NCBI GenBank assembly: GCA_046348035.1
Contig: JAXMEZ010000005.1
Span: forward strand, 13,615 to 77,614
Reading direction: 5' to 3'
Length of the DNA stretch: 64,000 nucleotides
Origin: Rubrivivax sp.
GTDB lineage: Bacteria; Pseudomonadota; Gammaproteobacteria; Burkholderiales; Burkholderiaceae_C
Every line of letters begins with the position of its first letter. Positions within the stretch are counted from its first letter, which is position 1. Under the pieces are notes generated by a model that made no database searches, was not told where the DNA came from, and was given only the letters and a program-made list of their open reading frames with translations. The position numbers and the translations under genes were made by a program. Positions 12,364 through 62,533 of this stretch are shown here, in pieces.

Positions 12364-13760
12364 CAACGCAGCCATTCGCTCACTCCCCGGCCGAGCGAAA
12401 TCAGGTTCGCGTTCAGCTCCTGCCCGTCGGCCAGCGCGTTGACGACGCTCACGCGCAGGTTGAAATGGTCGGCCTCGGCGGCCATCACGTCGAAGAGGCT
12501 GCGCCGGCCGAGCTGCTGCCATTGCTGCAGCGTGGCGTTGCGCACCTGCTGCGAGTCGCGCAGCACGGCTTCGGTGCGGCGCAGGCGGTCGAAGCTCGCC
12601 AGCGCCTGCTCGTGCACTTCGGCGACGCGGAAGCGCTTGGCCTCGATGGTGTCGGCGCGCTGCATCTCGGCAGCGCGGGCGCGCTTGCGCGCCGCGTCGG
12701 TGGCCGGCGGCACACCGGGGCTCGTGAGCGGGATGTTGACGTTGATGCCGATGGCGTAGCTGCTGTTGCGCACCGAGCCGCGCGTGCCGCCGCGGCCCCA
12801 CGACTGCGTGCCGCTGACGTTCCAGCCCACCTGCGCTCTCGTGCCCGCGGCCACCGCGTCGACGTAGTGGTGCATCGCCGCCGCCTGCGCGGTGAGCGCG
12901 GCCACTTCGCTGCTGCGCTCGACGTCGGCCACCAGCTGCGGCAGCGGTTCGACATCGAGCAGCAGCGAAGGCAAGCCTTCGCCGCTGGGCAGCGTGTCGC
13001 CCACCAGCCGCTTCAGCCGCCACTCGGTCTGCTTCAACTGCGACTGCGCACCGGCGAGCGAGATCTCCGCCTGCTGCAGCGACTTCTGCGCCTGCGACAG
13101 TTCGCTGGCGCGGCCGCGGTCGGCGCGCACGATCGTCTGCAGCGCATCGACGAGGCAGGCCATCTTGCGCACATACTGGCTGTAGACGACGCCTTGCTGC
13201 TGGTAGCGGCTGCGCTCGAACGCCAGCGATACGGTGGTGAGCGCGATCTGCTCCTGCACGTTGAGCTGGCCGTGCCGCGCCGATTCGGCCATCTGCGTGC
13301 GCCAGTCGACCAGGCGGTCGATGCGGCCGCCGTCGTAGAGGATCTGGCCGACGTTGACCGAGCCGCGCAACTGCACGGCCGAGGTTTCGCTGCCGGCCAG
13401 CGACTGCGAGCCGCCGGGGCCGACGCCGCCGCCGACACTCGCCTGGACGGCCTTGGCGGCGCGCGTCTCGCGGATGTCGTCTTCGGCCGCGTCGGCGAGC
13501 AACTGCGCCGCGCCGACCTGGTGGCTGCGGGCGATGGCATCGCGAACGAGCGACTGGAGCTGGCCGCGTGCGAGCGTGGCGGCGCTCGGCACGGCGGCCG
13601 CGCTGGAAGCGGCGGCAGCGGCTGCGGGGGCGGCGTCCTCGTCGATGCAATTGGCTGAGGCGCTGGCCGCGGCGCACGCTGCGACTACGGCGGCAGCAAG
13701 GCGCGCGAACGTGCGCGGCGAACGAAGCGAGGGAAGCGAAAGCAAAGCGGAGCGCGACAT
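12363..13760 (-). CDS. TolC-family outer-membrane channel (T1SS LapE/AggA-like)
   Basis: Signal peptide, QILYDGG, helical heptads, GRRSLFDVMAAE motif. Confidence 0.88.
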   Translation of the reverse strand: MSRSALLSLPSLRSPRTFARLAAAVVAACAAASASANCIDEDAAPAAAAAASSAAAVPSAATLARGQLQSLVRDAIARSHQVGAAQLLADAAEDDIRETRAAKAVQASVGGGVGPGGSQSLAGSETSAVQLRGSVNVGQILYDGGRIDRLVDWRTQMAESARHGQLNVQEQIALTTVSLAFERSRYQQQGVVYSQYVRKMACLVDALQTIVRADRGRASELSQAQKSLQQAEISLAGAQSQLKQTEWRLKRLVGDTLPSGEGLPSLLLDVEPLPQLVADVERSSEVAALTAQAAAMHHYVDAVAAGTRAQVGWNVSGTQSWGRGGTRGSVRNSSYAIGINVNIPLTSPGVPPATDAARKRARAAEMQRADTIEAKRFRVAEVHEQALASFDRLRRTEAVLRDSQQVRNATLQQWQQLGRRSLFDVMAAEADHFNLRVSVVNALADGQELNANLISLGRGVSEWLR

Positions 13761-13874
13761 CGTCGAAACAAGAGCGCGGCGACGGACGGCCGCGCCGCCA
13801 CAGTCTGGCCGCCGCCTGTGCCCGCATTCGCCGGATGTCGAGGGGGAAGGCGGCGCTTTTCGGAGGGCGTGGCG

Positions 13875-14115
13875 GCAAAGGGCCGCGCGGGCAGGGCGCG
13901 GCGCTTATGTTCGGCGGCTCCTCGCTGGCGCTCGGAGCTGCCCTGCGCTGCTCGAACTCCTGGCCCGCGGCCAACTCGCTTCGCTCACTTCGTTCGCTCC
14001 GCTCAGACAGTGGCCGCGAGTCAGTCTTGGATGCGCGTGAGTACACGCGCGGCCAGGAGTTCTGCGCTGCTCGGCGCCTTCGTGCGCGCCGCACCCTGCC
14101 CGTGCGGCCCTTTGC
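13875..14115. repeat. Long intergenic palindromic element (~240 bp)
   Basis: Arms GCAAAGGGCCGCGCGGGCAGGGCGCGGCGC and GCGCCGCACCCTGCCCGTGCGGCCCTTTGC, inner stem GAACTCCTGGCC/GGCCAGGAGTTC, core AACTCGCTTCGCTCACTTCGTTCGCTCCGCTCAGACAG. Confidence 0.8.
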
Positions 14116-14189
14116 GGCACCGGCGCTGGTGCTCCAAGGATCTCGGCGCCACCGCCTGCGCCGAACGCAGAAATCCGAGGCGACGGGAA

Positions 14190-15164
14190 TCAGCCCGGCC
14201 GCACGCCGAACAACCACGCCAGCGTGCTGAAGCTCGCGAAGGCGAGCACGGTGCTCGTGAGGATGATGCGCGCGATGCGGCCGTTGTCGGCGCCGAACCG
14301 TTCGGCCAGCAGCGACACGTTGCTGGCGCTCGGCAGCGCCGCGGCCAGCGTCAGCGCCACGAGCTGCGTGGCGGTGAGCGACAACCCGAGCGCGCGCACC
14401 GCCAGGCCGAGCGTGAACACGAGCAGCGGGTGCAGGAAGAGCTTCACCAGCGCCACCGGCACGAAGTCGATGGGCGCGGTGCGATGGTGCGCGTGCTGGC
14501 CGGCGCGGAACAGCACGGCACCGATGGTGAACAGGGCCACCGGCGTGGCCGCGTCGGCGAGCAGCCGCACCACCACCTCCACCGGCCCGGCGAGCTTGAA
14601 GCCGCCTGCGGAGGCGAGCGCGCCGAGCGCGATGGCCCACGGCAGCGGGTTCGACACGGCGGCGCGCAGCGCCCGCGCCAGCGCCGCACGCGCGCCGGCG
14701 CCGTGGTCGGCGGCCGCCGTGGCGGCCTCGGCCAGCGCGATGCACAGCGAACTCGTGACGAAGAGGTCGACGAGCAGCGTCGTCATCACCGGCGCTGTGG
14801 CCGCCGGGCCCAGCAGCGCGGCCAGCATCGGCAGGCCCATGAAGCCGGTGTTCGGGAACGCGGCCACCAGCGCGCCGAAGCTCGCGTCCTTCAACCGCAC
14901 GCGCGCGTTGAGCGAGAACGCGAGCGTGACGAAGACGATCAGGAGCGCCGCCAGCAGCCACACCGCGAACGCCGCCGGGTTCAGCGATTCGAGCACCGGC
15001 GCGTTGTTGCCGAAGCGAAAGAGCATGCACGGCAGCGCGAAGTACAGGACGAACGCGTTGAGCCCGGGAATCGCGCTTTCGGGCAGCACATGCCGGCGCG
15101 CCGCCAGGTAGCCGGCGAGCACGAGCGCGAAGAAGGGCACCGTGACGGCGAGGATGGCTTGCAT
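14190..15164 (-). CDS. AEC (auxin efflux carrier) family transporter
   Basis: LNAFVLYFALP, FPNTGFMGLP, SNPL, ALFTIG, ALPSA. Multiple TM segments. Confidence 0.9.
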   Translation of the reverse strand: MQAILAVTVPFFALVLAGYLAARRHVLPESAIPGLNAFVLYFALPCMLFRFGNNAPVLESLNPAAFAVWLLAALLIVFVTLAFSLNARVRLKDASFGALVAAFPNTGFMGLPMLAALLGPAATAPVMTTLLVDLFVTSSLCIALAEAATAAADHGAGARAALARALRAAVSNPLPWAIALGALASAGGFKLAGPVEVVVRLLADAATPVALFTIGAVLFRAGQHAHHRTAPIDFVPVALVKLFLHPLLVFTLGLAVRALGLSLTATQLVALTLAAALPSASNVSLLAERFGADNGRIARIILTSTVLAFASFSTLAWLFGVRPG

Positions 15165-15301
15165 GGCGCGGCGCGCGAGTATCGCCGCCGGGCAGGATTG
15201 CATGGCGGGCCGCGGGCGCACCGCGCGGCCGCTGGCTATGCTTGCCGCCCTCGTTCGCAACTGCCGGGCGCCCAGCCGCGTGAGCCCGCGCCCGATCTGC
15301 C

Positions 15302-17249
15302 ATGGCCATGATCGAATCCTCGCCCCCGCCTTCGGGCCGCTCGCCCGTGCGGCGTTTCTTCTGCGGCCTCGCGGCGCTGCTGGACGGCACGCGGCGGCTC
15401 GTGCTGAACCTGTTGCTGCTGCTCGTCGTGGCCTTGATCGCGGCGCTGCTCTGGCAGCGGCTGCATACGCCGGCGCTGGCCGAGAAGACGACGCTGGTGC
15501 TGGACCTTTCCGGGGCCATCGTCGACCAGCCGCGTACCGGCAGCCTGCGCAGCCGCCTGCTGGCGCAGCTGCGCGGACAGGGCGGCGCCGAAGCGCAGAC
15601 GCGGTTGCGCGACGTGCTGGCGGTGCTCGATGCCGCGGCGCACGACGAGCAGGTGACGCAGGCGCTGCTGCTCACCGACGACCTCGGCCCCACGGGCCTC
15701 GCCACACTGCGCGAGGTGGCCGCCGCCATCGAGCGCTTCAAGGCCGCGGGCAAGAAGGTCGTGCCTGGGCAGCGGCTACGAGCAGCGCCAGGATGGCCTT
15801 GCCGCCTTCGCCGACGAGGATGCCCCGGATGGGCACGGTGTACATCGAGGGTTATGGCCGCTACCGCACCTACTACCGCGAGGCCTTCGACCGCTGGGCG
15901 TGAGCGCCAACGTCGTGCGTGCCGGCAAAAAGTTCAAGAACGCCGCCGAGAACTTCGGCGGAACGGGCCGAGCCCGGAGACGGTGGAATCGGACTGGGCG
16001 CTGTACGGCTCAAGGACGAGCTGGACCGCCGGCACGAACGGGTGCGCGGCAAGCTGCCCGCCGGAAGCGTGATGGCCTACATCGACGGCCTGCCTCGGCA
16101 CGCTGCAGGCGGTGGGCGGCGACACCGCGAAGCTCGCTGTCGCGAGCAAGCTCGTCGATGCGCTGAAGACGCGCGACGAGGCGCAAGCTCCTCATCGAGC
16201 GCGGCGCCGAGGACACCGCGGCGAAGACGTTCCGGCAGGTGTCGCTGGCCGAGTACCGCGCGCGACATCGATCCGGACAAGGGCACGACGGCTCGGCGAG
16301 GCGATCGGCGTCATCGTCGCGCAGGGCGAGATCGTCGACGGCCGCGCCGGCCCCGGCACCGTGGGCGGGCTTTCCACCGCCGAGCAGATCCGCAAGGCGC
16401 GCGAAGCCGACGACGCAAGGCGATCGTGCTGCGCGTCAATTCGCCTGGCGGCAGCCCTCGCCGGCAGCGAACTCGTGCGCCGCGAACTCGAGCTGGCGCG
16501 CGCCGCCGGCAAGCCGGCGGTGTCGATGGGCGATGTCGCGGCCTCGGGCGGCTACTGGATCTCGATGGCCGCCGACGAGGTGATCGCCGACGAGGCGACG
16601 ACCACCGGCTCGATCGGCGTCGTCGGCATGATGCCCAGCGCCGAGGAGGCGCTCGGCAAGCTCGGCATCCACAGCGCCGGCACGACGACCACGTGGCTGG
16701 CCGGCGCGATGGACGAGCTGCGCAAGCCCGAGCCGCGCCTCGGTGGCGGCGGTGCAGTCGACGATCGACCACGCCTACGACCACTTCGTCGGCCTCGTGG
16801 CCGCGCAGCGCAAGCTCACGCGCGAGCAGGTCGAGGCGGTGGCGCAAGGGCGCGTGCGGAGCGGCAAGGACGCGCGCGAGCGCGCGCTCGTGGACCGGCA
16901 AGGCAGCTGGGCCGACGCAGTGGCCGCGGCGCGCCAGCGCCAAGCTCGGCGCGACGCCGCGACTGCGCTACTTCGAGGCCGACCGGGCCGGCTGCGCGGC
17001 TGCTGGCGGCGTTCGGCGTGGACGAATGGCGCGGCTGGCCGCCGCGGCGCTGGCGGTGCTGTGGGCGCGAAAGCGACGTCGGCGAGTCGTCGAGCATCAC
17101 CGGCGCGATGCCGGCCGGCACGGTTGCAGCAGCGCTGCCGCCAGCGGCGACGCAACGGCGTGGCTCGCCGAACTGGGCTGGCTCGCCGACGTGGCCACGC
17201 GCCGGTGCCTTTCGCCACCGCGACCCATTGCCTGTGCGCGGCGCCGTGA
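15302..17249 (+). CDS. sppA: Signal peptide peptidase SppA (long form); heavily frameshifted
   Basis: Fragments LVLDLSGAIVDQ, FKAAGKKV, VIVAQGEIVDG, IVLRVNSPGGS, SMGDVAASGGYWIS, TGSIGV, VAQGRV, and C-terminal HCLCAAP. Confidence 0.85.
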
Positions 17250-18126
17250 ATGGCGCGGGCAGTGGCGCCATGAATGGCGTTGTGAATGGCGCCGTGATCG
17301 GCCGCGTCGGGCGCGCCGTCGCTGCGGCGTCGTTGCTGGCAGCCGCACTGCTGGCGGCAGCGCCGACCGCGCACGCCCAGGACGAAGTGCTCTTCATCAC
17401 CACGCCCGACCGCGACCGCGGCGATGCTCGAACTGGCCGCGGTGAACGAGCGCGATTACGTGCTCGACCTCGGCTCGGGCGACGGCCGCATCGTCATCAC
17501 CGCGGCGAAGCGTTTCGGTGCCAGCGGCTCGGGCGTGGAGATCGTTCCCGACCTCGTGCGCAGAGCCGCGACAACGCGCGGCCGGCGTCGCGGCGCGCGC
17601 CGAGTTCCGCGAGCAGGACCTCTTCGCCACCGACCTTTCGCGCGCGACGAAAGGTGGACGATGTACCTGCCGCCTGGAGGTGAAACCTGCAGCTTCGTCC
17701 GCGCCTGCTGGCAATGGCGCCGGGCACGCGCATCGTCTCGCACGACTGGGACATGGGCGAATGGCAGCCCGACCGCGAGCTGACTTTGGATGTACCCGAC
17801 AAGGCGATCGGCCGCGAGAAGAAGTCGCGCGTGATGCTGTAGGTGGTGCTGGCGCTCGTGCAGGGCACGTGGTGCAGCGCCGGCCGAGGCGCGACGCCGG
17901 CGGCAGCGACAAGCACGATTTGCGTTCGACCTCGACGCAGCGTTTCCAGCGCTCGGCCACGCTGCAACAGGTGCGCGGCACGAATGGCGCCGGCGACTAC
18001 CCGGCGCCGGTGGCCGTGTTCGACGGCCGCATCGACGGACTCAACCTGCGCATCGAGAGCGACGACGGCGCAGGCGCAATTGCGCGCCGCGCCCTGAAGG
18101 CGCAACGCTGCAATTGGTGCAAATGA
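17246..18126 (+). CDS. SAM-dependent methyltransferase with N-terminal signal peptide; frameshifted
   Basis: AHA/QDEVLFITTP, MLELA, VLDLGSGDGRIVITAAKRFGA, TMYL, RIVSHDWDMGEWQPD. Confidence 0.75.
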
Positions 18127-18229
18127 GCGGCGCCGGCGCGGGCTATGCCGGCCGTGTGTTCCGCCGCGCCGCCGCGGCCGGCTGCTGGTGCGCAAGCAAC
18201 CCGCGGCGTTTCGGGCGGGTTGCGCAGCG

Positions 18230-18602
18230 CTACTTGATCGCGAAGTCTTCGAGCTTGCGGCTCGGCGGCCAGCGCGGTGCGCAGCCACACCGGCCGTTTG
18301 CCGCGGCCGGCCCAGGTGTTGCCGTTCTCGTCGCGGAATTTCGGGGCCACCTTGCGGCCGCTCGCCGACGTGGCCTTGCGCGGCCGCCCGGGTCAGGTCG
18401 GGCTTGCGCTGCTCCTTGGCGCGGCGTTGCGCGTGCCGCCGAAGCCCAGGTCACCAGCGGTCAGGCCGTAGGTGTCGATCGCGCCGCGGATCTTGGCGAT
18501 CACGTCGCTGACCTCGGAGCGGCGCTGCTTCTCGGCTTCGACCTTAGCGCTGGGCCTGCGATTCCGTTTGGAGGGATCTGGTTGATACGTCTTCTGCGTC
18601 AT
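18230..18602 (-). CDS. H-NS family nucleoid-associated protein; frameshifted
   Basis: EVSDVIAKIRGAIDTYGLTAGDLGF and KVAPKFRDENGNTWAGRGKRPVWL...LEDFAIK. Confidence 0.85.
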
Positions 18603-18811
18603 TTCATTTCCGGTGTGGGAAGGAAAACTCCCTGGCTCGCTTCTATCGCGCCCCGCTTGCTTTGCTCGCCCGCTCGATCCCGGGGCGAACGCATTCTAGG
18701 CACGATATTCGCAATCGAACGAGGGGCGTGGTCATTCGGCGACACGTCGAGACTTCGACATTTTTGGGGGGCATGCCCCGGCGCGCGGGGAGGCCGTGCC
18801 ATCATCGCACC

Positions 18812-19465
18812 ATGATCACGCTGCACTATTACCCGGGCAACGCCAGCTTCGCCGTGCACGTTCTGCTGCGCGAAATCGGCGTGCCGTTCGAACTGCAACT
18901 CGTCGATCGGGCGAAACAGGCGCACAAGGCCGAGGCCTACCTGAAACTCAATCCGAACGGCCTCATTCCGGTGCTCGTCGATGGCGCCGACGTGCTGTAC
19001 GAAACAGCGGCGATCCTGCTGCACCTGGCCGACACGCACCCGCAAGCCGGCCTCGTGCCCGCCCTCGGCAGCCGCGAACGGGCGCATTTCTACAAGTGGC
19101 TGTTCTGGCTGAGCAACACGATGCAGGCGGCGATGCAGCCGTTCTTCTACCCCGACCGCTGGGTGGACGATGGCAACAAGGCCGGTGCGGCGCAGGTGAA
19201 GGCGCGTGCGCAGGCGCGCCTGGACGGTTGCCTGCAACAGGTGGATGCGCACCTCGCCAGCCACGGCGGGCCGTGGTTCCACGGCAGCCGCTACAGCGCC
19301 GCCGATCCGCTCGTGTTCATGCTGTGCCGCTGGACGCGTGGCTTCACCGGCAGCCGGCCGGCGCGCGACTATCCGGCCATCGGCCCGTACCTGCAACGCA
19401 TGCTCGAACGCACGGCCGTGAAGCAGGTTTTCGAAGCGGAGAAACTGGCGCCGCCGCTGGTTTGA
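18812..19465 (+). CDS. Glutathione S-transferase
   Basis: YLKLNPNGLIPVL, YETAAILLHLAD, YSAAD. Confidence 0.92.
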   Translation: MITLHYYPGNASFAVHVLLREIGVPFELQLVDRAKQAHKAEAYLKLNPNGLIPVLVDGADVLYETAAILLHLADTHPQAGLVPALGSRERAHFYKWLFWLSNTMQAAMQPFFYPDRWVDDGNKAGAAQVKARAQARLDGCLQQVDAHLASHGGPWFHGSRYSAADPLVFMLCRWTRGFTGSRPARDYPAIGPYLQRMLERTAVKQVFEAEKLAPPLV

Positions 19466-19495
19466 GCGTCGCGGCGAAAGCCCGCCGCGCCGCCT

Positions 19496-19891
19496 TCAGA
19501 GCGAACCGCTGCCGCGCAGCTTCTCGAGCCGCAGCGCGAGCGCCTGCCGTTTCTCCGACAAGCGCTGGCGCAAGGCGCGCGCTGCGGCTTCGTCGCAGCC
19601 GGGCTGGGCGGCCATTGCATCGAGCTCGGCTTGCAGCGCGGCGATTTCCTGCATCGCCTCCACCTCGGGCGGCACGACGCCGGCGTCCTTGAGGATCTTC
19701 ATCGGCATGCGGAATTCGACCGGCGTTTCCGCGTAGCCGTCGCCCAGATCGAGCGGTTTGCCGAAACTCGGTGCGCTGCGCAATTCGCCGCTCTTCTCGC
19801 TTTCGGCGAGATGGCGGCCGATCTCGTCCTCGACGAGGCGCAGGCGCTGTTCCTTCTTCTCCTGCGCCGTTGGCTTGTCGGGCGAACTCAT
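19496..19891 (-). CDS. DUF1992 (DnaJ-related) family protein
   Basis: GKPLDL, TPVEFRMPMKILKDAGVVPPEVE. Confidence 0.8.
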   Translation of the reverse strand: MSSPDKPTAQEKKEQRLRLVEDEIGRHLAESEKSGELRSAPSFGKPLDLGDGYAETPVEFRMPMKILKDAGVVPPEVEAMQEIAALQAELDAMAAQPGCDEAAARALRQRLSEKRQALALRLEKLRGSGSL

Positions 19892-51058: not shown

Positions 51059-52332
51059 CTAGAGCGCGTCGATGATCTCGCGCCGCTTGCGCTGGTATTC
51101 CTCTTCCGTGATGAGGGTTCGCTTCGCGCAGCCGGCGCAGCGCGAGCAGGCGGCGTTCCTGCTCCTCCAGGTAGGCCGCGTCGCGCACGCGCGGCGGCGC
51201 CGCGGAGCGGCGGCAGGCGCCGGTGCGCTGGTAGCCGCGGAAGCAGAAGCGGCGGCTGAAGCGGGCGCGCGCGCGGCGGTCGCTGTCGCCGCTGCGGCCG
51301 TTGGTGTGGACGATGTGGACGGGGCCGCCGCTGCGGCCGCGCCGTCGAGAAGCTTGGCGCTCAACGCCCGCTGCAACCAGGATTCACCGGTGCTGCTGCG
51401 CCCGGTGCCGGCGCCGCGCCGCCGGCGGCCAGACCGACCAGCACGCCCGGAGCGCAACTGCGCGCGCTGCTGCGCCTCGTCGGCAGCGAGCAGGTCGACG
51501 ATCGCCGTGGCCGGCGGCTGCGCGCTGCGGTAGCCCATCGCGAGCGCCGGCCGCCCCCGCCTCGGGTGCCGCCACGCCGAGCGGCAGGCGCGCGATCGGC
51601 GCTTCGGCCGCGACTTGCTGCCGCGCCGAGGGTGGCGATCCAGTCCGATTCGATGCTGAGCTTCGCCGCGGTGACCACGGCGATCAGCGAAGCGCCGGCG
51701 AGCGCGCGCGCGCCCACGAAGCGCGAGGGCACCGTGAACGAAACGGTGCGGCCGCGCACGCGCACGTCGGTGGCGAAGAAGATCTCGGCGTCGATGACGG
51801 CATCGACATCGGTGCCGGCCGGCACGCCGCCGTCGCCGAGTGCATCGCGCAGCTGGCGCCGCATCAGCTCCGGCCGCGGCGTCAGCACGATCGCCCGCTC
51901 CCACGCGTGCGCGGCGTCGGTGCGGGCGCGCCGCCCGGGCAACAGCGCCGTGTGCCCCGAGCCGGCGACGCGGTCGAGGTCGAGGTAGATGTCGAGGTTG
52001 AAGGCGTAGAAGCCGCGCCGCGCGAACAGCGACAGGTCCTCGTTGCCGAGCAGGCCCGACTTCACCTGCGCCGGATCGCGCACGACGTTGGCGAAGGTGG
52101 CCTCGAAGCGCAGCCGTTCGCCTTCGTCGAAGACGCGCAGCGTGCGCAGGTCGAGGTCGCCCGGCTCGACGATCGGCTCACGCGGCGGCACGAGCGTGCC
52201 GTCGCCATTGTCGTCGCCGGCCGCATCGGCGAGCTGGAGCAGCGGCTGCTGCGGCTGCGCGGGCGCCGGCAGCGGTGCGGCCAGCGACACCACCGTCAGG
52301 CACAGCGCCGCGGCGAGGAAACGGGTCTTCAT
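51059..52332 (-). CDS. Secreted glucodextranase DOMON-like domain protein with C-terminal SHOCT-like motif; frameshifted
   Basis: Signal peptide, DAAGDDNGDG...P...GDLDL, FNLDIYLD, LLPGR, WERAIVLTP, Ala-rich linker, LITEEEYQRKRREII. Confidence 0.7.
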
Positions 52333-52495
52333 CGGCAAAGCGTCCTGGCAGGAAGGCGGCGAAGCGTAAGGCAAGAAGGGCCCGCATCCGCGAGCGGATG
52401 GGGCCCCCTCGGCTTTCTCGGCTTTCTTGGCTTTCTCGGCTTGCCTATGTTGGCTCGCCTATTCGTGAAGCGGCGGCGCGAGCCGCCGGCAGCGT

Positions 52496-54295
52496 TCAGA
52501 AGATCGCCTTCACGAACGCCTTCAGCCGGTACTGCTTGATGCTCGAACGCACGCCCGTCTCGCCCGGGTCGCCGTCGCCGCTGATCCACTGCGACAGCAG
52601 CCCCGTCTCGAAGCCGGCGAGGTTGTACGCGAGGCGGATGCCGGTGATGCTCTTCTCGTTGTCGATGCTGAGCGCGGCGGTGCGGATGTCGCGCGTGTAG
52701 CGGCCGTAGGACACCGTGCCGTAGAGGTCGCCGAAGAGCTGGTTGCCGGCCGAGAGCGTGTAGCCGCTGTCGCGCGTCTCGCGGTCGTCGGCGGCGCTGG
52801 CGAGCGAGAAGTTGTTCTTGTCGAGCACGCGCTTGACCTTGGCGCCCAGCTCGATGCCGCCCATCGCCGGCACGACGTAGCCGATCTTGAACACGCCGAT
52901 GTTCGTGCGGCGGTCGTTGCTGGCGGCGAAGAAGTTCGCCAGCGCGCTGGTGACGGTCTCGCGGTTGTAGTTGTAGCCGATGCGCGTCAGCTCCAGCGAC
53001 ATCGGGATCTTCGCCACCTCGTAGTTGACGAGCACGGTGTGGCCCTTCCAGCCTTGCACCGACTCGGCCGGCGCTTCGTCGAAGTCCATGAAGTCGTTGT
53101 CGACCAGGCCGTTGGCGCCGGGCGCCAGGCCGCTGTCGCTGCGGCACACGCCGCCGCCGCTGACGAAGCACTTGGCCGACGAGGGCGCCTGCTGGTAGTC
53201 CTTGGCCGCGCCGCCGAGCCAGATCGACTGGCCCCAGCGGTGCCAGGCCGCTTCCGAGCCTTCGGTCAGCAGCACGTCGACCTCGCGGCGCGAGGCGGTG
53301 TTGCTGTAGAAGCCGGCGCCGATGTTGAAGTACTGGTAGTTGACCGACAGGCCCGTCACCGGCAGCGAAGCGAAGCTCGCATCGAGCTTGATCGCCTTGC
53401 CGCGGATATCGGACTTCGGCGAGTTGATCCACGGCTGGTCGAACAGCGGCGCCTTGTACGTCGAGCCGTACAGCGCCCCCTTGAGGTCGATGCCGGCGAC
53501 GGAGCCTTCGCCCTTCAGCATCGCCACCTGGCTCTTGGCGAACGTGCGGCTGGAGCGGCCGTTGAGGTCGGTGCCGTCGGTGTCGTCGAGGATGCGGTCG
53601 TTGAAGAACTGGTAGCTCGTGGCCAGCTTCACCGGCCCGAGCGTGCCCTTCAGCTGGCCGATGTAGACGCCTTCGTTGTACTGCGTCTCGTCGCTGCTGC
53701 AGCACGCGGCGCCCTGGCCGTAGTTGCTCTGCAGGTAGTTGGGCAGCGACAGGCGGGCGAACTCCCAGCTCGCGCCCGGTGCCGGCAGCGGCCCCTTGAA
53801 GTACAGGCCGTTGTAGTTGTCGCGGTCGATGTAGCGCACCTGGCCGACGGTGAAGGGGTCGAACGTGCCCCAGTCGCTGCTGCCGATGAGGGCCTGGTCG
53901 AGCCACTTGTAGCCCGGCGTCAGCAGCACGTAGGCGCCGCGCAGCTTCATGAACTTGCTCTGCGTCGGCCGCGCGTTGGTGTCGGTGAAGCCCTCGTTGT
54001 TGGCGAAGCCGAAGTTCGTCCAGTACGACGCCGAGCTGCGGCTTTGCAGCCGCACGCCGGCCTCGACCTGGCGCGAGATGGTGGCCTTGATGCGCAACTC
54101 GAACTCGGTCCACTGGCCCTGGTCGGAACCGCTGGCCGTGTCGGCGCTGCTGTCGCTCGCGCGGCGCTGGTCGCCGTCGAGGAACTTCATGTAGATGTTC
54201 GAGCCGCTGAAGTCGAGCTTCTGCGCCATGGCGCCGCCGGCGGCCAGGGCCAGCATCGCCGCGGCGGCGAGGGGCTTGAGAGCGTGGGTTTTCAT
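52496..54295 (-). CDS. Unassigned 599-aa outer-membrane beta-barrel-like protein (candidate alpha-glucan porin)
   Basis: Sec signal ending AMA/QK. Many alternating amphipathic strands rich in Y/F/W/G/N. C-terminus YRLKAFVKAIF ends in Phe. Co-oriented within the mal locus. Confidence 0.7.
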   Translation of the reverse strand: MKTHALKPLAAAAMLALAAGGAMAQKLDFSGSNIYMKFLDGDQRRASDSSADTASGSDQGQWTEFELRIKATISRQVEAGVRLQSRSSASYWTNFGFANNEGFTDTNARPTQSKFMKLRGAYVLLTPGYKWLDQALIGSSDWGTFDPFTVGQVRYIDRDNYNGLYFKGPLPAPGASWEFARLSLPNYLQSNYGQGAACCSSDETQYNEGVYIGQLKGTLGPVKLATSYQFFNDRILDDTDGTDLNGRSSRTFAKSQVAMLKGEGSVAGIDLKGALYGSTYKAPLFDQPWINSPKSDIRGKAIKLDASFASLPVTGLSVNYQYFNIGAGFYSNTASRREVDVLLTEGSEAAWHRWGQSIWLGGAAKDYQQAPSSAKCFVSGGGVCRSDSGLAPGANGLVDNDFMDFDEAPAESVQGWKGHTVLVNYEVAKIPMSLELTRIGYNYNRETVTSALANFFAASNDRRTNIGVFKIGYVVPAMGGIELGAKVKRVLDKNNFSLASAADDRETRDSGYTLSAGNQLFGDLYGTVSYGRYTRDIRTAALSIDNEKSITGIRLAYNLAGFETGLLSQWISGDGDPGETGVRSSIKQYRLKAFVKAIF

Positions 54296-54343: not shown

Positions 54344-55135
54344 TTACTTGCGGACCATCTTCAGCGTCGCCATCTTCTTGCTCTCGCCGTTGGGGCCGCA
54401 CTCGTAGGCCAGCATCTCGGCCTGCTTGGCGTCGGGACCGTCGAGCACGTCCATCACGTGCGGGTCGCAGTCGCCGTCGTGGCCGCCGCCGAAGCGGTGC
54501 TGGCCTTCGTACTCGTTGACCTTGCGCGTCAGGAAGTCGGTGGCGGCCGGGAAGCCCTCGTTGGACTGCATCACCACCTGGTACGACCAGCCGTCGACGT
54601 TGCCGTCGCCGCCGAGGTCGGCCAGCGGGATCGAGCCGGTGATCGTGCGGCCGCGGCCGCGCGTGAGGTTGGGCACCAGCACGTCCTTGGCCAGCGCGCC
54701 GAGCTTGGCGTCGGCCTCGCTGGTGACGCGCGCCTTCTTCTGCGGCGACAGCACGATCACCTTGTTCCACTCGTGGCCGGGCGCGAACTTCACGTTCAGG
54801 CCGGTCCACGTCTCGGCGCGGCCGCCGGGGGCGCCGGTCTTGACGAAGATGAAGATCATCTGTACCGCGAAGCCGCCGCCCATGCCCCACGGGTCTTCGA
54901 GGTTCGAGGCGACGTCGACGGCGAAGTCGACGCTGGTGCCGCTCTTGACGGCGCTGAACTTGACGATGTCGAACGAGCCGCTCTTGTAGACGCCGTCGGT
55001 GGGGTAGGTGTAGTTGCCGGGGCCCTTGTCGTCGCCGCGCGGGTCGGTGAACTCGACGGCACCGGCGCTGGCGCCGACGAGCGCCAGCGCGGCGGCCGCG
55101 GCCAGCGTGCGCAGGGTGGGTTTGAAGCGATTCAT
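54344..55135 (-). CDS. Secreted stand-alone glucodextranase DOMON-like (amylopullulanase C-terminal type) domain protein
   Basis: Signal peptide, FTDPRGDDKGPGNYTYPT...GSFD, DPWG..GGFAVQMIFIF, RFGGG.DG..DP.VMDVL. Confidence 0.8.
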   Translation of the reverse strand: MNRFKPTLRTLAAAAALALVGASAGAVEFTDPRGDDKGPGNYTYPTDGVYKSGSFDIVKFSAVKSGTSVDFAVDVASNLEDPWGMGGGFAVQMIFIFVKTGAPGGRAETWTGLNVKFAPGHEWNKVIVLSPQKKARVTSEADAKLGALAKDVLVPNLTRGRGRTITGSIPLADLGGDGNVDGWSYQVVMQSNEGFPAATDFLTRKVNEYEGQHRFGGGHDGDCDPHVMDVLDGPDAKQAEMLAYECGPNGESKKMATLKMVRK

Positions 55136-55215: not shown

Positions 55216-56088
55216 TCACTTGACGCTGCCGGCGGTGAGGCCGGACACGAGGTACTTCTGCAGGAACATGAACAGGATGACCACCGGCAGCGAGACGATC
55301 ACCGAACCGGCGGCGAAGAAGCCCCACTGCGAGCTGAAGCCGCCGACGAAGAAGCGCAGCCCCACCGGCGCGGTGTAGTTGGCCTCGCTCTCCATGAACA
55401 CCGAGGCGAGGATGAACTCGTTCCACGCCGTCATGAACGAGAACAGCGCCGTGATGGCGATGGCGGGCTTCGCGAGTGGCAGGATGATGCGCAGGAAGAT
55501 CGTCTGCGCGCTGGCGCCGTCGATGCGGGCGCTCTCCTCGATGTCGATGGGAATGGTGTCGAAGTAGCCCTTGAGCATCCAGACGCTGAAAGGGATCGCC
55601 GTGGTGGCGTAGACGATGACGAGCCCGAGGAAGTTGTTCCCGAGCCCCAGCCACTTGACGATGATGATGAACAGCGGGATCAGCATCAGCGTGCCGGGGA
55701 ACATCTGCGACACGAGGAAGGCGAGCATGCCGCCCTCGCGCCCGGGGAAGCGGAAGCGGCTGAAGGCGTAGGCGGCGGTGCAGGCGAGGAACACGCCGAG
55801 CAGCGTCGTCAGCGCCGACACGATGACGCTGTTGAGCAGCCAGCGGCCGAACGGTTGCTCGGTCATCACGTCGGTGAAGTTGCGCAGCGACAAGTGCGCC
55901 GGCCACGGCACGATGCCGCGCGCCCGCTCGAGGAAGCCCGGGTCCTTCGGCAGGTCCACGAGGCCCACGCTCTGCTGGCCGGAGAAGGCGAGCGCCAGCA
56001 CCCACAGCACCGGGTACACGGTGAGCAGCGTGAAGCTGATCAGCGTGGCGTGCAGCCACAGCGGGTTCTTCGGCCGGCCGAGCGCCAT
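55216..56088 (-). CDS. malG: Maltose/maltodextrin ABC permease MalG-like
   Basis: AYAFSRFRFPGR, QMFP, WMLKGYFDTIP, EESARIDGA, FMTAWNEF, GLTAGSVK. Confidence 0.9.
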   Translation of the reverse strand: MALGRPKNPLWLHATLISFTLLTVYPVLWVLALAFSGQQSVGLVDLPKDPGFLERARGIVPWPAHLSLRNFTDVMTEQPFGRWLLNSVIVSALTTLLGVFLACTAAYAFSRFRFPGREGGMLAFLVSQMFPGTLMLIPLFIIIVKWLGLGNNFLGLVIVYATTAIPFSVWMLKGYFDTIPIDIEESARIDGASAQTIFLRIILPLAKPAIAITALFSFMTAWNEFILASVFMESEANYTAPVGLRFFVGGFSSQWGFFAAGSVIVSLPVVILFMFLQKYLVSGLTAGSVK

Positions 56089-56104: not shown

Positions 56105-58136
56105 TCAGTAGCTTTCCGTGGCGCGCGTGAGGCGGGTCTGGAAGTACCCGTACACGAGCAGGATCACGAAGATCACCGTGGAGTAGGCCGCAGCGTAGGC
56201 GTACTGGTATTGCTCGAACGCAATCTTGTACGCCTTCGTCACCAGGATCTCGTTGGCGCCGCCCGGCTCGCCGCCGGAGACGAGGAAGATGATGTTGAAC
56301 ATGTTGAAGGTCCACACCACCGAGATCACCACCGCCGGCACCAGCGTGGGGCGCAGCAGCGGCAGCGTGATGCGCCGGAACTGCTGCCAGCGGCTGGCGC
56401 CTTCGACATCGGCAGCCTCGTACATGTCGCGCGGGATCGACTGCAGCGCGCCGAGGATGACGACCATCATGAACGGGAAGCTGAGCCAGCCGTTGGTGAC
56501 GAGGCCGGTCATGAACGAGCTGACGACGCCGTCGAACCAGCGCACCGGCGCGAAGCCGAACATCTGCAAGGCCTGGTTGATGACGCCGAACTGCGGGTGG
56601 AACATGCCGCGCCACACCAGCGCGGTGATGTAGTTCGGAATCGCCCACGGCAGGATCAGCAGCACGCGGTAGGCGGTCTTGCCGCGCAGGCCCTCGGTGT
56701 TCAGCGCCAGCGCGAGCAGGAAGCCGAAGGTGACGCCGACGGTGACGTTGGTGACGGTCCAGATCACCGTCACCATCAGCGTCCAGTAGAAGTTCTGGTA
56801 GTTGACGACGGTGCCTTCGGCGCTCGTCTTGACGATGTCGAAGTCGCCGAGGATGCTGGCGAAGTTGGCCAGGCCCACCCAGCGCTCGCGGAAAGGCAGG
56901 TTCTCGTTGAAGAGCGTCGTGTCGGTGAACGCGAGCGTGATGCCGTAGAAGAACGGGAAGAACACCAGCACCAGCATGCCGAGCATCGCCGGCGCGACGT
57001 AGGCATAGGCGAGCCGGTTCGCGCGCACGGCGCGCGCTGCGCGCCGCGTAGCCCTGCACGAAGAACAGCAGCACCGCGAGGCCGACGACATCGATGACCA
57101 CGAACGCCTGGGCCAGGAACAGAGCGGTGCGAGGCGGCGGCGCGGTTCGCCTTGTCGAGCGGCCGGCCTTCGGGCGAGACGAGGCGAAGCGCGCGGCCGT
57201 AGGCGTCGGTGTCCCAGGCGCTGGCTGCTGCTCGGTCCGGCGAGCCGGTGGCGGCTCCGGTGGCGGGGGCGGCAGGGGCCAGGTCCGGCGCCCGGCGATT
57301 CCGCCGCGCCGCTGCGCAGATACGTCGCCGCGGCTGCGGCCTGAAGCGCCGCCACGGCGCCGTCGCCGGCGGCCGTGCCCGCGGCCATGCGGGCCAGATG
57401 CTGCTGCTGGAACCACGCCGCCGTGGCCAGCAGCAGGACCACTTTGCGATGCCGCGCCCGAGGTCGAAGCGCCGCTCGCTGTCGAGCGGCAACAGGGTGC
57501 CGAGCACGAGCGCGGCAGCGACCAGCACGGCTGCGAGCGCCCACGACGACGTGCCGCCGGAACCGGGCGCAGCGCCGGCATCGATCGGCGAGTTCGCCTT
57601 CCGCCAGCCGCACGCGCGCCTGCACCATGCCCTCGATGCCGTCCTTCGAGCGCAGCGGCACGCTGACGACGAGATCGCCGCGCGCACCGCCGGTGTCGCC
57701 GGCGTGCTCGACGCGCAGCGTCTCCTGCGCGCCGCGCCTTCGCTGGCGTTGGTCTCGTCGGCCGCGCGCAGTTCCTGCGCCAGGTCGAAGAGGGCTTCTC
57801 TTCGCGCTTCAGCGCGCGGGCCTTCGTCGGCCGGCCACGGTGGAGGCGCGCAGCTCGCGGCCGGCGATGACGCGCACTTCGCGCAGCGCGCCGTGCTCGC
57901 GCTGCCACAGCGCCAGCCGCGGCGCCGTCGCCGCTTCGTCGGCACCGGCCAGCGACGCGGCCACTGCGTTGGCCAGCAGCATCGCGGCGCGCTCGCGCTG
58001 GCCGGCGGCGAGGTCGCCGGCGACGCCCGCGTGCAGCCAGCCGCTGGCGGCCAAGCACGACGGCCAGCGCCGCCGCCAGGCCGAGCGGCAGCGGCGACGT
58101 GATGCGCGAGAGGGTGATCTGCCTCAGCCAGTCCAT
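56105..58136 (-). CDS. malF: Maltose/maltodextrin ABC permease MalF-like with long N-terminal extension; frameshifted in the 5' half
   Basis: Core YAYVAPA, YRVLLILPWAIP, WLSFPFMM, LQSIP.DMYEAADVEGA, WTFNMFN. An extra ~350 codons lie upstream, starting MDWLRQITLS. Confidence 0.8.
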
Positions 58137-58203: not shown

Positions 58204-59468
58204 TCACTTGCCCCGGCGCAGCGCGGCGACGCTTTCCTGCACGCTGCCGGCCGCTTCCTTCAGCGCCGCCTCGACGGTGGCGTTGCCCTTCACGATCTTG
58301 TTCATCGCCGTCGTGCCGGCGACCACACCATCGTCATCTCGGGCCGGTTGGGCATCGGCTCGGCGTTCTCCAGTTGCGCGCGGAACGCCTGCAGCACCGG
58401 GTCGCCGCTCACCTTCGGGTTGGCGTAGACGGCCTTGTTCGTGTGCAGCTGCCGGCCTTCGAGCGCGAGCACCAGGCCCGCCTCTTCGCCGGTGAGGTAG
58501 CGCGCGAACTCGTAGGCCACCTCCTTGTTCGCCGAGCTGGCCGCCACGTACGCGCCTTCGATCGTCATCCACGGGCGCAGCGGCTTCTTCGTCGCGTCGA
58601 GCATCGGCAGCGGCGCGAAGCCGACGTTGATCTTCTTGTCGATGTCGCCGACGAACCAGGGCCCGTTGATGACCATCGCCGCCTTGCCCTCGTTGAACAT
58701 GGAAGCGATCAGCGCCTCGCTCGGCTCGGCGGGCAGCACGCCGTCCTTGAACCACTTCATCATCTGGTTCAGCGATGCGACGTTGGCCGGGCTGTCGAGC
58801 ACGAGCTTGCCATCCTTGTCGAACACGGCGCCGCCGAAGGCGTTCATCAGCGCCGAGTGGAAGTAGAAGTTCGTGTACCAGTAGGCGAGGCCGTAGCGGC
58901 CGCTGGCGGCGTTGGTGAGCGACTTGGCCAGCTTCACCATCTCGTCCGTCGTCTTCGGCGGCGCCTTGACGAGGTCCTTGTTGTAGATGAGCGTGGGCAT
59001 CTTGTAGTTGATCGGCAAGCCCCACACGCCGCCCTTGTAGGTCATCGCCGCCAGCATGCCCGGCAGCAGGCTGTCGCGCGTGGCCTTGTCGAGAAAGAAG
59101 TCGATCGGCTCGACGGTCTTGCCGGCCTCGATCCAGCCGCCCAGGCGGTCCTGCGCGTAGATGAACACGTCGGGGCCCTTGCCGCGCGGCACCGCGGCGC
59201 TGATCTTGTCGGCGTAGGCGTCGTACGGGATCGCCAGCGTCGAGACCTTGAAGCCCTTGGCGGCAGGCGTCTTCGCGAAGTTCTCGACCACCTTCTCGAA
59301 CGCGGCCTTCTCGGCGGCGCGGTAGGCGTGCCAGACCACGAGTTCCTTGGCCGCGCCCTGCGCAAAGGCGCTGCCGGCGCCGGCCAGCGTTGCAGTGGCC
59401 AGCGCGAGGCCAAGCGCGGTGCGCCGCGAGTGCAAGGGCTGCAAGGGCTGGAAGGTGGGCTTCTTCAT
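58204..59468 (-). CDS. malE: Maltose/maltodextrin ABC substrate-binding protein MalE-like; frameshift near 58320
   Basis: RR leader, LVVWH, GPDVF..QDRLG.W, LIYNKDLV..PP.T, AMVINGPW, PMPN.PEM..VW. Confidence 0.88.
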
Positions 59469-59524: not shown

Positions 59525-60646
<1,122 letters not shown>

Positions 60647-60667: not shown

Positions 60668-62293
60668 TCAGCGATCGGCCGGCACGACGATGCGCACCGA
60701 CTTCGGCGCCAGCGTGATGCGCAGCCGGCCTTCGCCGACGCTGGCCGGCTCGCCGCTCAGGCTGTCGCGCGCGGCCGCCGCGGCCCAGGCCGGCGGCAAG
60801 GCGATGTCGGCGGCGAGCGCCTCGTCATCGCGGTTGGCGAGCACGATCACCGCGTCGCCGCTGGCGGCATCGCGGCGCATGAAGGCGAGCACGCGGTCGG
60901 CCGGCTGCGTCAGCATCGTGTAGTCGCCGCGGCGCAGGGCGGGGTGCGACAGGCGGATGCGGATCAGCTGGCGGTAGGTCTCGCGCAGCGCTTCGTCGCG
61001 CGCCACGCCGCGGCCGGGCAGGATGTCGCGCTCGCCCCAGGGCATGTCGTTGCGGTTGAACGGCCACACGTTGCCGCCGCGGGCGACCTCTTCGCCGTAG
61101 TAGACGACCGGCATGCCCAGCGACGTCATCTGCAACGCCACGCACAGGCGGAAGCGCTGCCGGTCGCCGCGCAGGTTGGCCAGCATCATCGGCTCGTCGT
61201 GGCTCGAGAGGTAGTGCGCCAGCACGTGGCCGGCGCGCACCTGGTGCCGGCCGCGCAGGTAGGCGGCATAGGCGACGCTGCGGCCACGGCCCGTGACCCA
61301 GCCTTCGCAGCTGCCCTTGAAGCTGAAGTCGAAGCCGGCATCGACCTCGTCGCGCTCGAAGAAGGCATCGAGCGACTGTGCCGTGCCGCCCCAGTCCTCG
61401 GCAAGCAGGAAGAAACCAGGGCCGAGCTCGGCGCGCGTGCGCCGCCGGTGTTCCTGCCACACCGCGCTCTCGACGTGCTTGTAGGTATCGAGGCGGAAGC
61501 CGTCGATGCCGGAACGCCGGGCGAGCGCGATGTTGGCATCGAGGAGGTAGTCGCGCACTTCGGGAAGGTCGGTGCGAAAGTCGGGCAGGCCGCCGACCGC
61601 GCATGTCACCGGGTTGGCGTCGCAGTTGCCTTCGCCCACGCGCAGCCACGGCACGCCGGCGGCCGTGCGGCGCGCGGTGTAGGCGTTCGTGTAGCCGGCG
61701 TGATTGACGACGACATCGAGCAGCACCTTGATGCCGCGGCGATGCGCTTCGTCGACGAGGCGCTTCAGGTCGGCCTCGGTGCCGAAGTGCGGCTCCATCT
61801 GCGTGAAGTCGGCGATCCAGTAGCCGTGGAACGGCTCGTGCATGAAGCTGCCCGCGCCCGGCGCCGTTGCCGTCATGCCCCGCGCCTGCTGCAGTTGCAC
61901 GGGGTTGATCCACAACGCCGTCACTCCGAGGCTCTTCAGCTCGTCGAGCTGCGCCGTCAGGCCCTTCAGGTCGCCGCCGTGCCAGCCGCCGGGATTGCGG
62001 CGATCGACGCCACGGTTGTTGGTGGGGTCGCCATCGGCGAAGCGGTCGATGAGGACGAAGTAGAGGACTTCGTCGGCCCAGGTGCGAGAGGCCAGCGGTG
62101 GCAGGTCGGCAGCAGCGGCCGGTGACGGCGCAGCGACCGGCGTCGGGTTGGTACCGGTGGGTGCCGTGCAGGCAGCCAACAGCAGCGAAAGCGTCCACGG
62201 CACCAGCATCGCGCACGGTCTCGCGGCGATGTCGCGCAGCAGTGACGGCCGCCCGCGGGCGCCCGCCGTGCCTCTACCGCCGCGCTGGAACAT
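60668..62293 (-). CDS. GH13 alpha-amylase-family glycoside hydrolase, probable lipoprotein
   Basis: YFVLIDRFADGD, FHGYW, LDVVVNH, GFRLDTYKHV (nucleophile Asp), LAEDW (Glu), SSHDE (Asp), YYGEE. Lipobox LLAAC. Start uncertain (62208-62305). Confidence 0.92.
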   Translation of the reverse strand: MFQRGGRGTAGARGRPSLLRDIAARPCAMLVPWTLSLLLAACTAPTGTNPTPVAAPSPAAAADLPPLASRTWADEVLYFVLIDRFADGDPTNNRGVDRRNPGGWHGGDLKGLTAQLDELKSLGVTALWINPVQLQQARGMTATAPGAGSFMHEPFHGYWIADFTQMEPHFGTEADLKRLVDEAHRRGIKVLLDVVVNHAGYTNAYTARRTAAGVPWLRVGEGNCDANPVTCAVGGLPDFRTDLPEVRDYLLDANIALARRSGIDGFRLDTYKHVESAVWQEHRRRTRAELGPGFFLLAEDWGGTAQSLDAFFERDEVDAGFDFSFKGSCEGWVTGRGRSVAYAAYLRGRHQVRAGHVLAHYLSSHDEPMMLANLRGDRQRFRLCVALQMTSLGMPVVYYGEEVARGGNVWPFNRNDMPWGERDILPGRGVARDEALRETYRQLIRIRLSHPALRRGDYTMLTQPADRVLAFMRRDAASGDAVIVLANRDDEALAADIALPPAWAAAAARDSLSGEPASVGEGRLRITLAPKSVRIVVPADR

Positions 62294-62500
62294 TGCCACG
62301 TCCACCCCCGGGCTGCCGGCAGCGGGACGAAGGCGCTTATCCTCTGCCGCTTGCCACTGTGATTGAGCCGGCGACTGCCGGATTGAGATAGCTCAAGACG
62401 GCTGGCCGTTGGCGCATCACTGTGCTGCCGGCGCAACTCGGCGCATTCTGTTCTGCGGTGCGGTCGACGAGACGCGCGGCTGTCGCGTTCGGGACCCCAG

Positions 62501-62533
62501 AAAAAGAAAGGCAGGGTTCGCACCCTGCCTTTT
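62501..62533 (-). terminator. Rho-independent terminator
   Basis: Minus strand AAAGGCAGGGT-GCGA-ACCCTGCCTTT followed by CTTTTT, about 60 bp after the 62594 stop. Confidence 0.85.

Follow-up and report, generated by a model that had tools for sequence, protein, structure and literature searches.

The stretch of Rubrivivax sp. DNA analysed here (64,000 nucleotides of contig JAXMEZ010000005.1; hereafter the window) carries on its minus strand a gene for a large outer-membrane β-barrel protein, in the following simply called the barrel, which represents a new protein family. It is the seventh gene of an eight-gene cluster of the order GH13-MalK-MalE-MalF-MalG-GdC1-barrel-GdC2, where GdC1 and GdC2 denote two proteins with Glucodextran_C domains, and the evidence compiled below points to an outer-membrane channel for α-glucans that would work together with GdC1. 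The features of the cluster, all on the minus strand and in the order of the genes, are as follows, with the sources of each assignment in brackets.

60668 to 62305, minus strand: GH13 α-amylase-family enzyme with the lipoprotein signal LLAAC (Pfam, NCBIfam)
59525 to 60646, minus strand: MalK/UgpC-type ABC ATPase with OB_MalK/TOBE domains (Pfam, NCBIfam)
58302 to 59468, minus strand: MalE-like periplasmic sugar-binding protein (Pfam, NCBIfam)
56105 to 57661, minus strand: MalF-like ABC permease of 518 aa, similar in length to E. coli MalF (Pfam, NCBIfam)
55216 to 56088, minus strand: MalG-like ABC permease (Pfam, NCBIfam)
54344 to 55135, minus strand: GdC1, a secreted non-lipoprotein β-sandwich of 263 aa, Glucodextran_C/DOMON-like (Pfam, PDB, Foldseek)
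52496 to 54295, minus strand: the barrel, outer-membrane β-barrel protein P0002, 599 aa (open reading frame, AlphaFold2, conservation)
51059 to 52332, minus strand: GdC2, a divergent Glucodextran_C domain followed by an Ala/Pro-rich linker and a SHOCT-like C-terminal helix (Pfam, ortholog comparison)

The barrel gene is real and conserved. Its open reading frame of 599 aa, from ATG to stop, fills the interval 52496-54295 exactly on the minus strand, with GAGGAG located 5 nt upstream of the ATG; a plus-strand reading was rejected, since its translation gives no sensible protein. The GC content at third codon positions is 0.96, typical of a real gene in this genome of ≈ 70% GC. The signal peptide comprises residues 1-24 and ends with AMA, the mature protein starting with QK and counting ≈ 575 residues up to the terminal phenylalanine of the sequence KAIF; cysteines occur in the motifs AACCSS (residues 196-201) and KCFVSGGGVC (Cys376 and Cys384). 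A word-indexed protein search returned 427 relatives, all of ≈ 590-620 aa and either named 'hypothetical' or unnamed, and an exhaustive search of 1.8 billion representatives gave 145, just 29 of them at E ≤ 1e-30. No paralogue was found in the window's own genome, which is weak evidence of absence because this metagenome-assembled genome (MAG) is only 61% complete. One database entry, P0018 (972 aa, on a 4.5-kb ENA contig), matches three quarters of the barrel at 96% identity and has HypF carbamoyltransferase domains besides; this barrel-HypF 'fusion' is probably a chimera of gene calling or assembly.

Among NCBIfam families the neighbours come closest to MalE, MalF, MalG, MalK/UgpC and MalS-type α-amylase/cyclomaltodextrinase, all below the equivalog cutoffs, and the true start of the GH13 gene is probably the ATG at ≈ 62209. 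Just upstream of this gene, at 62507-62532 on the minus strand, the beginning of the eight-gene unit is marked by a strong terminator-like hairpin with 11 pairs and then a T-run. The 163-nt spacer between the barrel and GdC2 genes (52333-52495, minus strand) holds about four tandem copies of AAGCC(G/A)AGA, then a GC-rich imperfect hairpin and TTCTT; this element, which a consensus terminator scan did not pick up, may be an attenuator or terminator that uncouples GdC2 expression from that of the barrel.

Fold and family membership of the barrel

An AlphaFold2 model computed from a 40-sequence alignment is a transmembrane barrel, as the original prediction, made from the letters of the DNA alone, had claimed and had set out beforehand as open to refutation. 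The model (predicted local distance difference test, pLDDT, 73; predicted template modelling score, pTM, 0.70) has 22 strands, connected by turns of 2-8 residues that alternate with longer loops. The complex of barrel and GdC1 described below, run independently, displays ten clusters of turn contacts plus both termini, in agreement with 22 strands; by the usual rule for outer-membrane proteins, the short turns and both termini are placed on the periplasmic side. The same prediction had read off the signal peptide, the terminal phenylalanine and the loop cysteines, all of them present, as well as strands from the first mature residues onwards, borne out by a first barrel strand that begins at residue 26 in the model. 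It placed the protein, with ≈ 575 mature residues, between LamB and the TonB receptors in length; 22 strands correspond to the barrel of a TonB-dependent receptor and not to that of LamB.

Equally sustained was the claim that the TonB plug and the motifs of LamB, OprB and alginate-export proteins are absent. Pfam found neither Plug (PF07715) nor TonB_dep_Rec (PF00593) in the barrel, whose 22 strands are those of TonB-dependent transporters, a likeness of size and fold only. LamB (PF02264), OprB (PF04966) and the alginate-export AlgE family gave no Pfam match at E ≤ 10, and LamB was likewise missing from the PDB sequence and profile searches; in Rubrivivax sp. RP6-9, the same Pfam model for LamB does pick up a genuine LamB at another place in the genome. 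NCBIfam assigned no family, and the PDB searches yielded nothing relevant (one chance match at E 1.2 by sequence, none by profile).

Pfam does attach the name Porin_4 (PF13609) to the protein, with 32 bits against a cutoff of 27, which on its face would make the barrel an ordinary 16-stranded general porin of this family with oversized loops. Such an assignment is hardly credible, as the match is limited to residues 465-575 (111 of 599) and to profile positions 139-241, i.e. 103 of 310, and is shared at E ≤ 0.01 by 15 of 49 relatives, among which no other family recurs. Where Porin_4 has 16 strands in ≈ 300-400 residues, the model has 22 over 575 mature residues, a strand number on which two predictors agree. 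In structural alignments with VIA-align, 18-strand Occ channels cover barrel residues 24-517 only, in contrast to the 22-strand receptor barrels, which align over 26-599 (340-415 residues, Z 11-15). These extents give the barrel the size of a receptor. It has no plug of its own and fits no recognisable family; its membership in Porin_4 is formal and partial.

The structural neighbours are generic throughout. Foldseek with the barrel model returned generic barrels only, with template modelling (TM) scores ≤ 0.41 spread across unrelated barrels, and VIA-align against 48,161 chains produced a flat list with Z 11-16, in which AlgE (Z 13.8) and OprB (Z 11.6) rank as nothing more than generic barrel neighbours. 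Kinship with SlpA, ushers, MtrB, Occ channels and TonB receptors was considered and dropped, as none of them stands out; because both programs return generic barrels only, no kinship with these proteins is claimed. In the full-text literature searched, no description was found of the barrel family, nor of stand-alone GdC proteins accompanying a barrel; the papers on Gallionellaceae and Sideroxydans that were examined do not mention maltose, starch or glycogen. The family is new: no full-length match to any characterised porin family emerged from Pfam, NCBIfam, the PDB sequence and profile searches, Foldseek or VIA-align, and the original prediction was right on this point.

Conservation within the family is concentrated in two loops rich in invariant Trp, Phe, Tyr, Arg, Asp and Glu residues. 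Loop L3 (residues 141-160, DWGxFDPFTVGxVRYIDRDN) is the most conserved of the barrel, with a mean identity of 0.84, and parts of the 91-residue loop L7 (326-416), which carries the motif SRRExDVLLTEG, are strongly conserved as well. On the periplasmic side the turn TPGYxWL (mean identity 0.73) and the turn AG within YNLAGFE (0.77) stand out. As to the cysteines, orthologs contain none, two (the CC pair only) or four, the C-x8-C pair being gained or lost as a unit, so to judge from the alignments the pairs behave like two disulfides. Cys376 and Cys384 in L7 sit in a clade-specific insert. Cys198-Cys199 in L4 (53699-53704 of the window, minus strand) is nearly invariant and is the sole pair in many orthologs, a pattern that implies a rare vicinal disulfide.

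GdC1 as neighbour and predicted partner

GdC1 is a Glucodextran_C protein over its full length: it matches the Pfam family PF09985 at E 1.1e-55 and domain C of glucodextranase (PDB 1UG9) at E 2.7e-26, and its model (pLDDT 82.6) finds the same domain with Foldseek at E 1.5e-12, with no other clear PDB neighbour. The motifs DPxGDDxGPGxYxYPTD and NEYEGQHRFGGG are invariant. Domains of this family belong to a DOMON-like/CBM9-like superfamily and are attached to several α-glucan enzymes, and kinetic data suggest that they recognise α-glucan chains (PMC10074034). Both GdC proteins of the cluster have a Sec signal and no lipobox. The first β-strand (VEFTDP...) stands at the very start of mature GdC1, with no extension before it that might carry a TonB box, although no motif search specific for TonB boxes was made.

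Association of the two genes is strict. GdC1 lies directly upstream of the barrel at every locus with enough upstream sequence. In an even set of 401 genomes of the order, the barrel occurs in three (counting the window's own), and strong GdC1 matches (E ≈ 1e-142) occur in those three only, adjoining the barrel. Moreover, two natural fusions, P0148 (877 aa) and P0169 (959 aa), combine signal peptide, GdC domain, Ala/Pro linker and barrel in a single chain, and both are encoded beside GH13 and GH15 genes.

The complex of the two proteins was predicted from barrel residues 25-599 and GdC1 residues 27-263 in three runs, accompanied by three controls. The interface score ipSAE was 0.63 in all three runs, as opposed to 0.00 for the best of the three controls; the mark applied to this score is reached by 58 of 80 solved complexes and by two of 110 mismatched pairs, a rough calibration only, since own alignments were used. 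Between runs, at least 84% of the contacts are shared, with a pLDDT of at least 85 for GdC1. On the barrel, the predicted interface takes in both termini, all ten short turns, the beginning of L3 (residues 140-144) and Asp340 of L7, which is invariant; on GdC1, it includes the invariant motifs YPTD and NEYEGQ. Contact residues of the barrel are more conserved than the rest of the protein (0.69 vs 0.59, permutation p ≈ 0.007). The fusions fit this predicted geometry, their GdC domain coming before strand 1, at the periplasm. The prediction is unlikely to be a copy of a known structure, because no solved barrel complex of the GdC1 fold was found. It thus supports binding of GdC1 to the barrel; with its controls, and alongside the fusions and the co-occurrence, it speaks for an architecture of two components.

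Another view would regard the barrel as a stand-alone passive sugar porin, in line with the original prediction, and GdC1 and GdC2 as free periplasmic or secreted glucan binders that do not attach to it. The gene context does fit the passage of sugars, the conserved internal loops L3 and L7 could constrict the lumen unaided, and gene neighbourhood by itself is no proof of binding. The natural GdC-barrel fusions, the strict adjacency and co-occurrence, and a complex prediction that passes its controls all speak against this view, as do the two periplasmic turns mentioned above, TPGYxWL and AG, which are unusually conserved for a porin; we therefore consider it rather unlikely. With GdC1 always adjacent, fused to it in two lineages and predicted to dock at its periplasmic mouth, the barrel is probably not a stand-alone porin.

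A wide barrel with a dedicated soluble partner also resembles translocator-cargo pairs, and both GdC proteins carry Sec signals and lack a lipobox, so that the barrel might be conceived as an export or display device that puts the GdC proteins on the cell surface to catch α-glucans, in the manner of Slam or two-partner systems, and not as a path for sugar. GdC1, however, is predicted to dock on the periplasmic face, at the short turns and both termini, and in the fusions the GdC domain lies on the N-terminal side of strand 1, whose start is at the periplasm; no POTRA or usher-like domains were found on the barrel by Pfam. Export or display is accordingly judged improbable.

Distribution, gene context and proposed role

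A survey of species-representative genomes returned 53 loci, at ≈ 45 of which the eight genes occur in identical order, most of the others being short or broken contigs. The cluster, or its core GdC1-barrel-GdC2, recurs in ≈ 50 species, including relatives with just 27-35% identity. Carriers of the eight genes comprise Rubrivivax, Burkholderiaceae, Rhodoferax, Gallionella, Sideroxydans, Thiobacillus, Hydrogenophilales, some Gammaproteobacteria and a Rhodospirillaceae MAG, and in Myxococcota GdC1 and the barrel are kept beside GH13 genes. Relatives of 700-740 aa and 34-35% identity show the same eight-gene order or the three-gene core, the full order being found with a 740-aa relative at 34% identity. 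Since some loci hold the three-gene core alone, the constant unit is GdC1-barrel-GdC2, almost always tied to α-glucan genes. The family is rare and patchy, with the barrel present in two of 396 sampled high-quality genomes of the order.

In the complete genome of Rubrivivax sp. RP6-9 (loci L002/L022, CP187368; L002 at 13253-19666), glucokinase genes precede the locus, which is followed by a DUF4394 protein, a second GH13 enzyme and a pullulanase of 1182 aa. LamB was not found in four of the five carrier genomes searched, RP6-9 being the exception. As this strain carries a true LamB elsewhere, the barrel does not simply replace LamB, and its description as a LamB replacement is only partly tenable. 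The pullulanase neighbourhood together with the separate LamB hints that the substrates of the barrel may be larger or more branched than those of LamB.

GdC2 is the more divergent of the two Glucodextran_C proteins, matching PF09985 at E 2.9e-20 and lacking the YxYPTD and NEYEGQ motifs of GdC1. Its orthologs (357-503 aa) begin with a signal peptide and a divergent Glucodextran_C domain and continue through an Ala/Pro linker of low complexity to a SHOCT-like helix at the end. In the window the gene is 1274 nt long, a length not divisible by three, and compared to its closest ortholog (locus L005) there are several frame-breaking indels at ≈ 51624-51380; the N-terminal domain is intact in one frame and the SHOCT-like tail in another. 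These breaks could be an assembly error in the GC-rich low-complexity linker, or real decay. At a distant locus (L059, 10232-13009), the protein in the position of GdC2 has 925 aa and combines Glucodextran_C with a Peptidase_M49-like region.

Taken together, we read the barrel as an outer-membrane α-glucan or maltodextrin channel that works as a pair with GdC1 as its periplasmic cap or plug, and give this interpretation a probability of ≈ 0.6. A role in α-glucan passage is well supported by the context, from which the channel function itself is deduced. The original prediction of a carbohydrate porin is thereby partly supported: its carbohydrate side is upheld by the α-glucan context in ≈ 50 species and in relatives down to 27-35% identity, its porin acting alone probably is not, in view of GdC1 adjacency, fusions and predicted docking. 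What we infer beyond this are the substrate, the direction of transport, the part played by GdC2 and the mode of action of GdC1, which may be a gate or else a passive module that receives or ratchets the chains. The barrel would take the slot of LamB in a mal system of the E. coli type, with a different outer-membrane part. Chains of α-glucan would enter through the wide barrel, its lumen narrowed by L3 and L7, and would meet GdC1 in the periplasmic opening; the lipoprotein GH13 amylase would trim them, MalE would capture the trimmed chains, and MalFGK2 would import them.

A bolder version is a two-piece, TonB-independent plug-and-barrel translocon, with GdC1 as a detachable β-sandwich plug that binds the chain at the constriction and ratchets or gates its entry, and with the long Ala/Pro linker and SHOCT tail of GdC2 tethering the outer-membrane complex towards MalFGK2. 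This is a tentative proposal and on balance a doubtful one; if true, Burkholderiales, Gallionellaceae and Myxococcota would possess a trans-envelope sugar conduit of a new class.

Several observations weigh against the reading as an α-glucan channel with GdC1 as its cap. The barrel model is moderately confident (pLDDT 73), with several loops below 50, and the periplasmic docking face depends on the rule that short turns and termini are periplasmic; the family is known here from sequences and models alone. Contact residues of GdC1 are no more conserved than the remainder of the protein, and fail to stand out because GdC1 is highly conserved as a whole. Sugar binding by Glucodextran_C is still unproven (PMC10074034). 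The true LamB of RP6-9 lies ≈ 2.3 Mb from the locus. Several carriers are iron-oxidising lithotrophs, in which starch uptake is unexpected. Finally, the distant locus L004 consists of the three-gene core in a stretch without GH13 or permease genes, with a MalK-like fragment at the contig edge.

This last locus can also be enlisted for a different idea, namely that the barrel, by analogy with OmpM or SlpA, tethers the outer membrane or has a structural part in the envelope, with 'SLH-like' GdC domains that bind the cell wall and sugar genes that are mere neighbours. 'SLH-like' is indeed the Pfam label of Glucodextran_C, the top Foldseek matches of the barrel are Deinococcus SlpA complexes (TM only ≈ 0.28), and the fusions share with OmpM and SlpA the arrangement of N-terminal domain, linker and barrel. 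The structural matches are generic, however, and the association with GH13 and MalEFGK persists from phylum to phylum and throughout the branches of the family, the fusions with their GH13 and GH15 neighbours included; nor does the rarity of the barrel in the order, as given above, suit a core envelope component. A tethering role is thus very improbable, and the channel with a GdC1 cap is the interpretation retained in the following.

Comparison with known systems

Glycans are known to cross the outer membrane either through small specific porins (LamB, ScrY, ChiP, CymA, OprB) or through TonB-energised 22-strand receptors (SusC, MalA). Substrate-specific passage of sugars through this membrane is, accordingly, a known kind of job, for which a plugless 22-strand barrel with a separate DOMON-like cap is undescribed in the libraries and literature searched. 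If the interpretation is correct, there would be a third glycan route, by way of a receptor-sized barrel without its own plug and a separately encoded partner resembling a carbohydrate module at the periplasmic mouth. It would furnish several hundred 'hypothetical' proteins with a function and free-standing Glucodextran_C proteins with a first cellular role, and would suggest that some iron-oxidising 'autotrophs' (Gallionella, Sideroxydans) take up α-glucans. The idea can be tested directly in Rubrivivax sp. RP6-9, a carrier that is in culture and has a complete genome.

The closest counterpart in gene content is the mal system of E. coli (LamB, MalS, MalEFGK2); in both, an outer-membrane protein is encoded along with proteins of the MalE, MalF, MalG and MalK types and with an envelope amylase resembling MalS. 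LamB has 18 strands and ≈ 420 residues. Conserved aromatic and charged residues in inward-facing loops are common to both proteins, but the barrel has no sequence or profile similarity to LamB, has 22 strands and ≈ 575 mature residues, and is predicted to have a dedicated partner.

In architecture, the TonB-dependent glycan transporters come to mind, represented by Caulobacter MalA and the SusC type. Here the likeness consists in a 22-strand barrel with a globular domain, predicted in our case, in its periplasmic opening, and the fusions place this domain before the barrel like a plug. The differences are the lack of Plug and TonB_dep_Rec and the nature of the occupant, a Glucodextran_C/DOMON-like β-sandwich of ≈ 237 residues that is usually encoded separately.

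In MtrAB (PDB 6R2Q), too, a large barrel is paired with a soluble protein that has a gene of its own and inserts into the barrel, or caps it, from the periplasm; MtrB is among the best structural neighbours of the barrel described here, though not distinctly so. Unlike that system, GdC1 has no haems, the context is sugar uptake, the strands number 22 instead of 26, and there is no sequence similarity. For GdC1 itself, the reference is domain C of the glucodextranase of Arthrobacter (PDB 1UG9/1ULV, PF09985), to which it is homologous over its full length, including the motif DPxGDDxGPGxYxYPT; where the latter is a C-terminal module of a glycoside hydrolase, GdC1 is a free-standing secreted protein or, in the fusions, part of the barrel chain.

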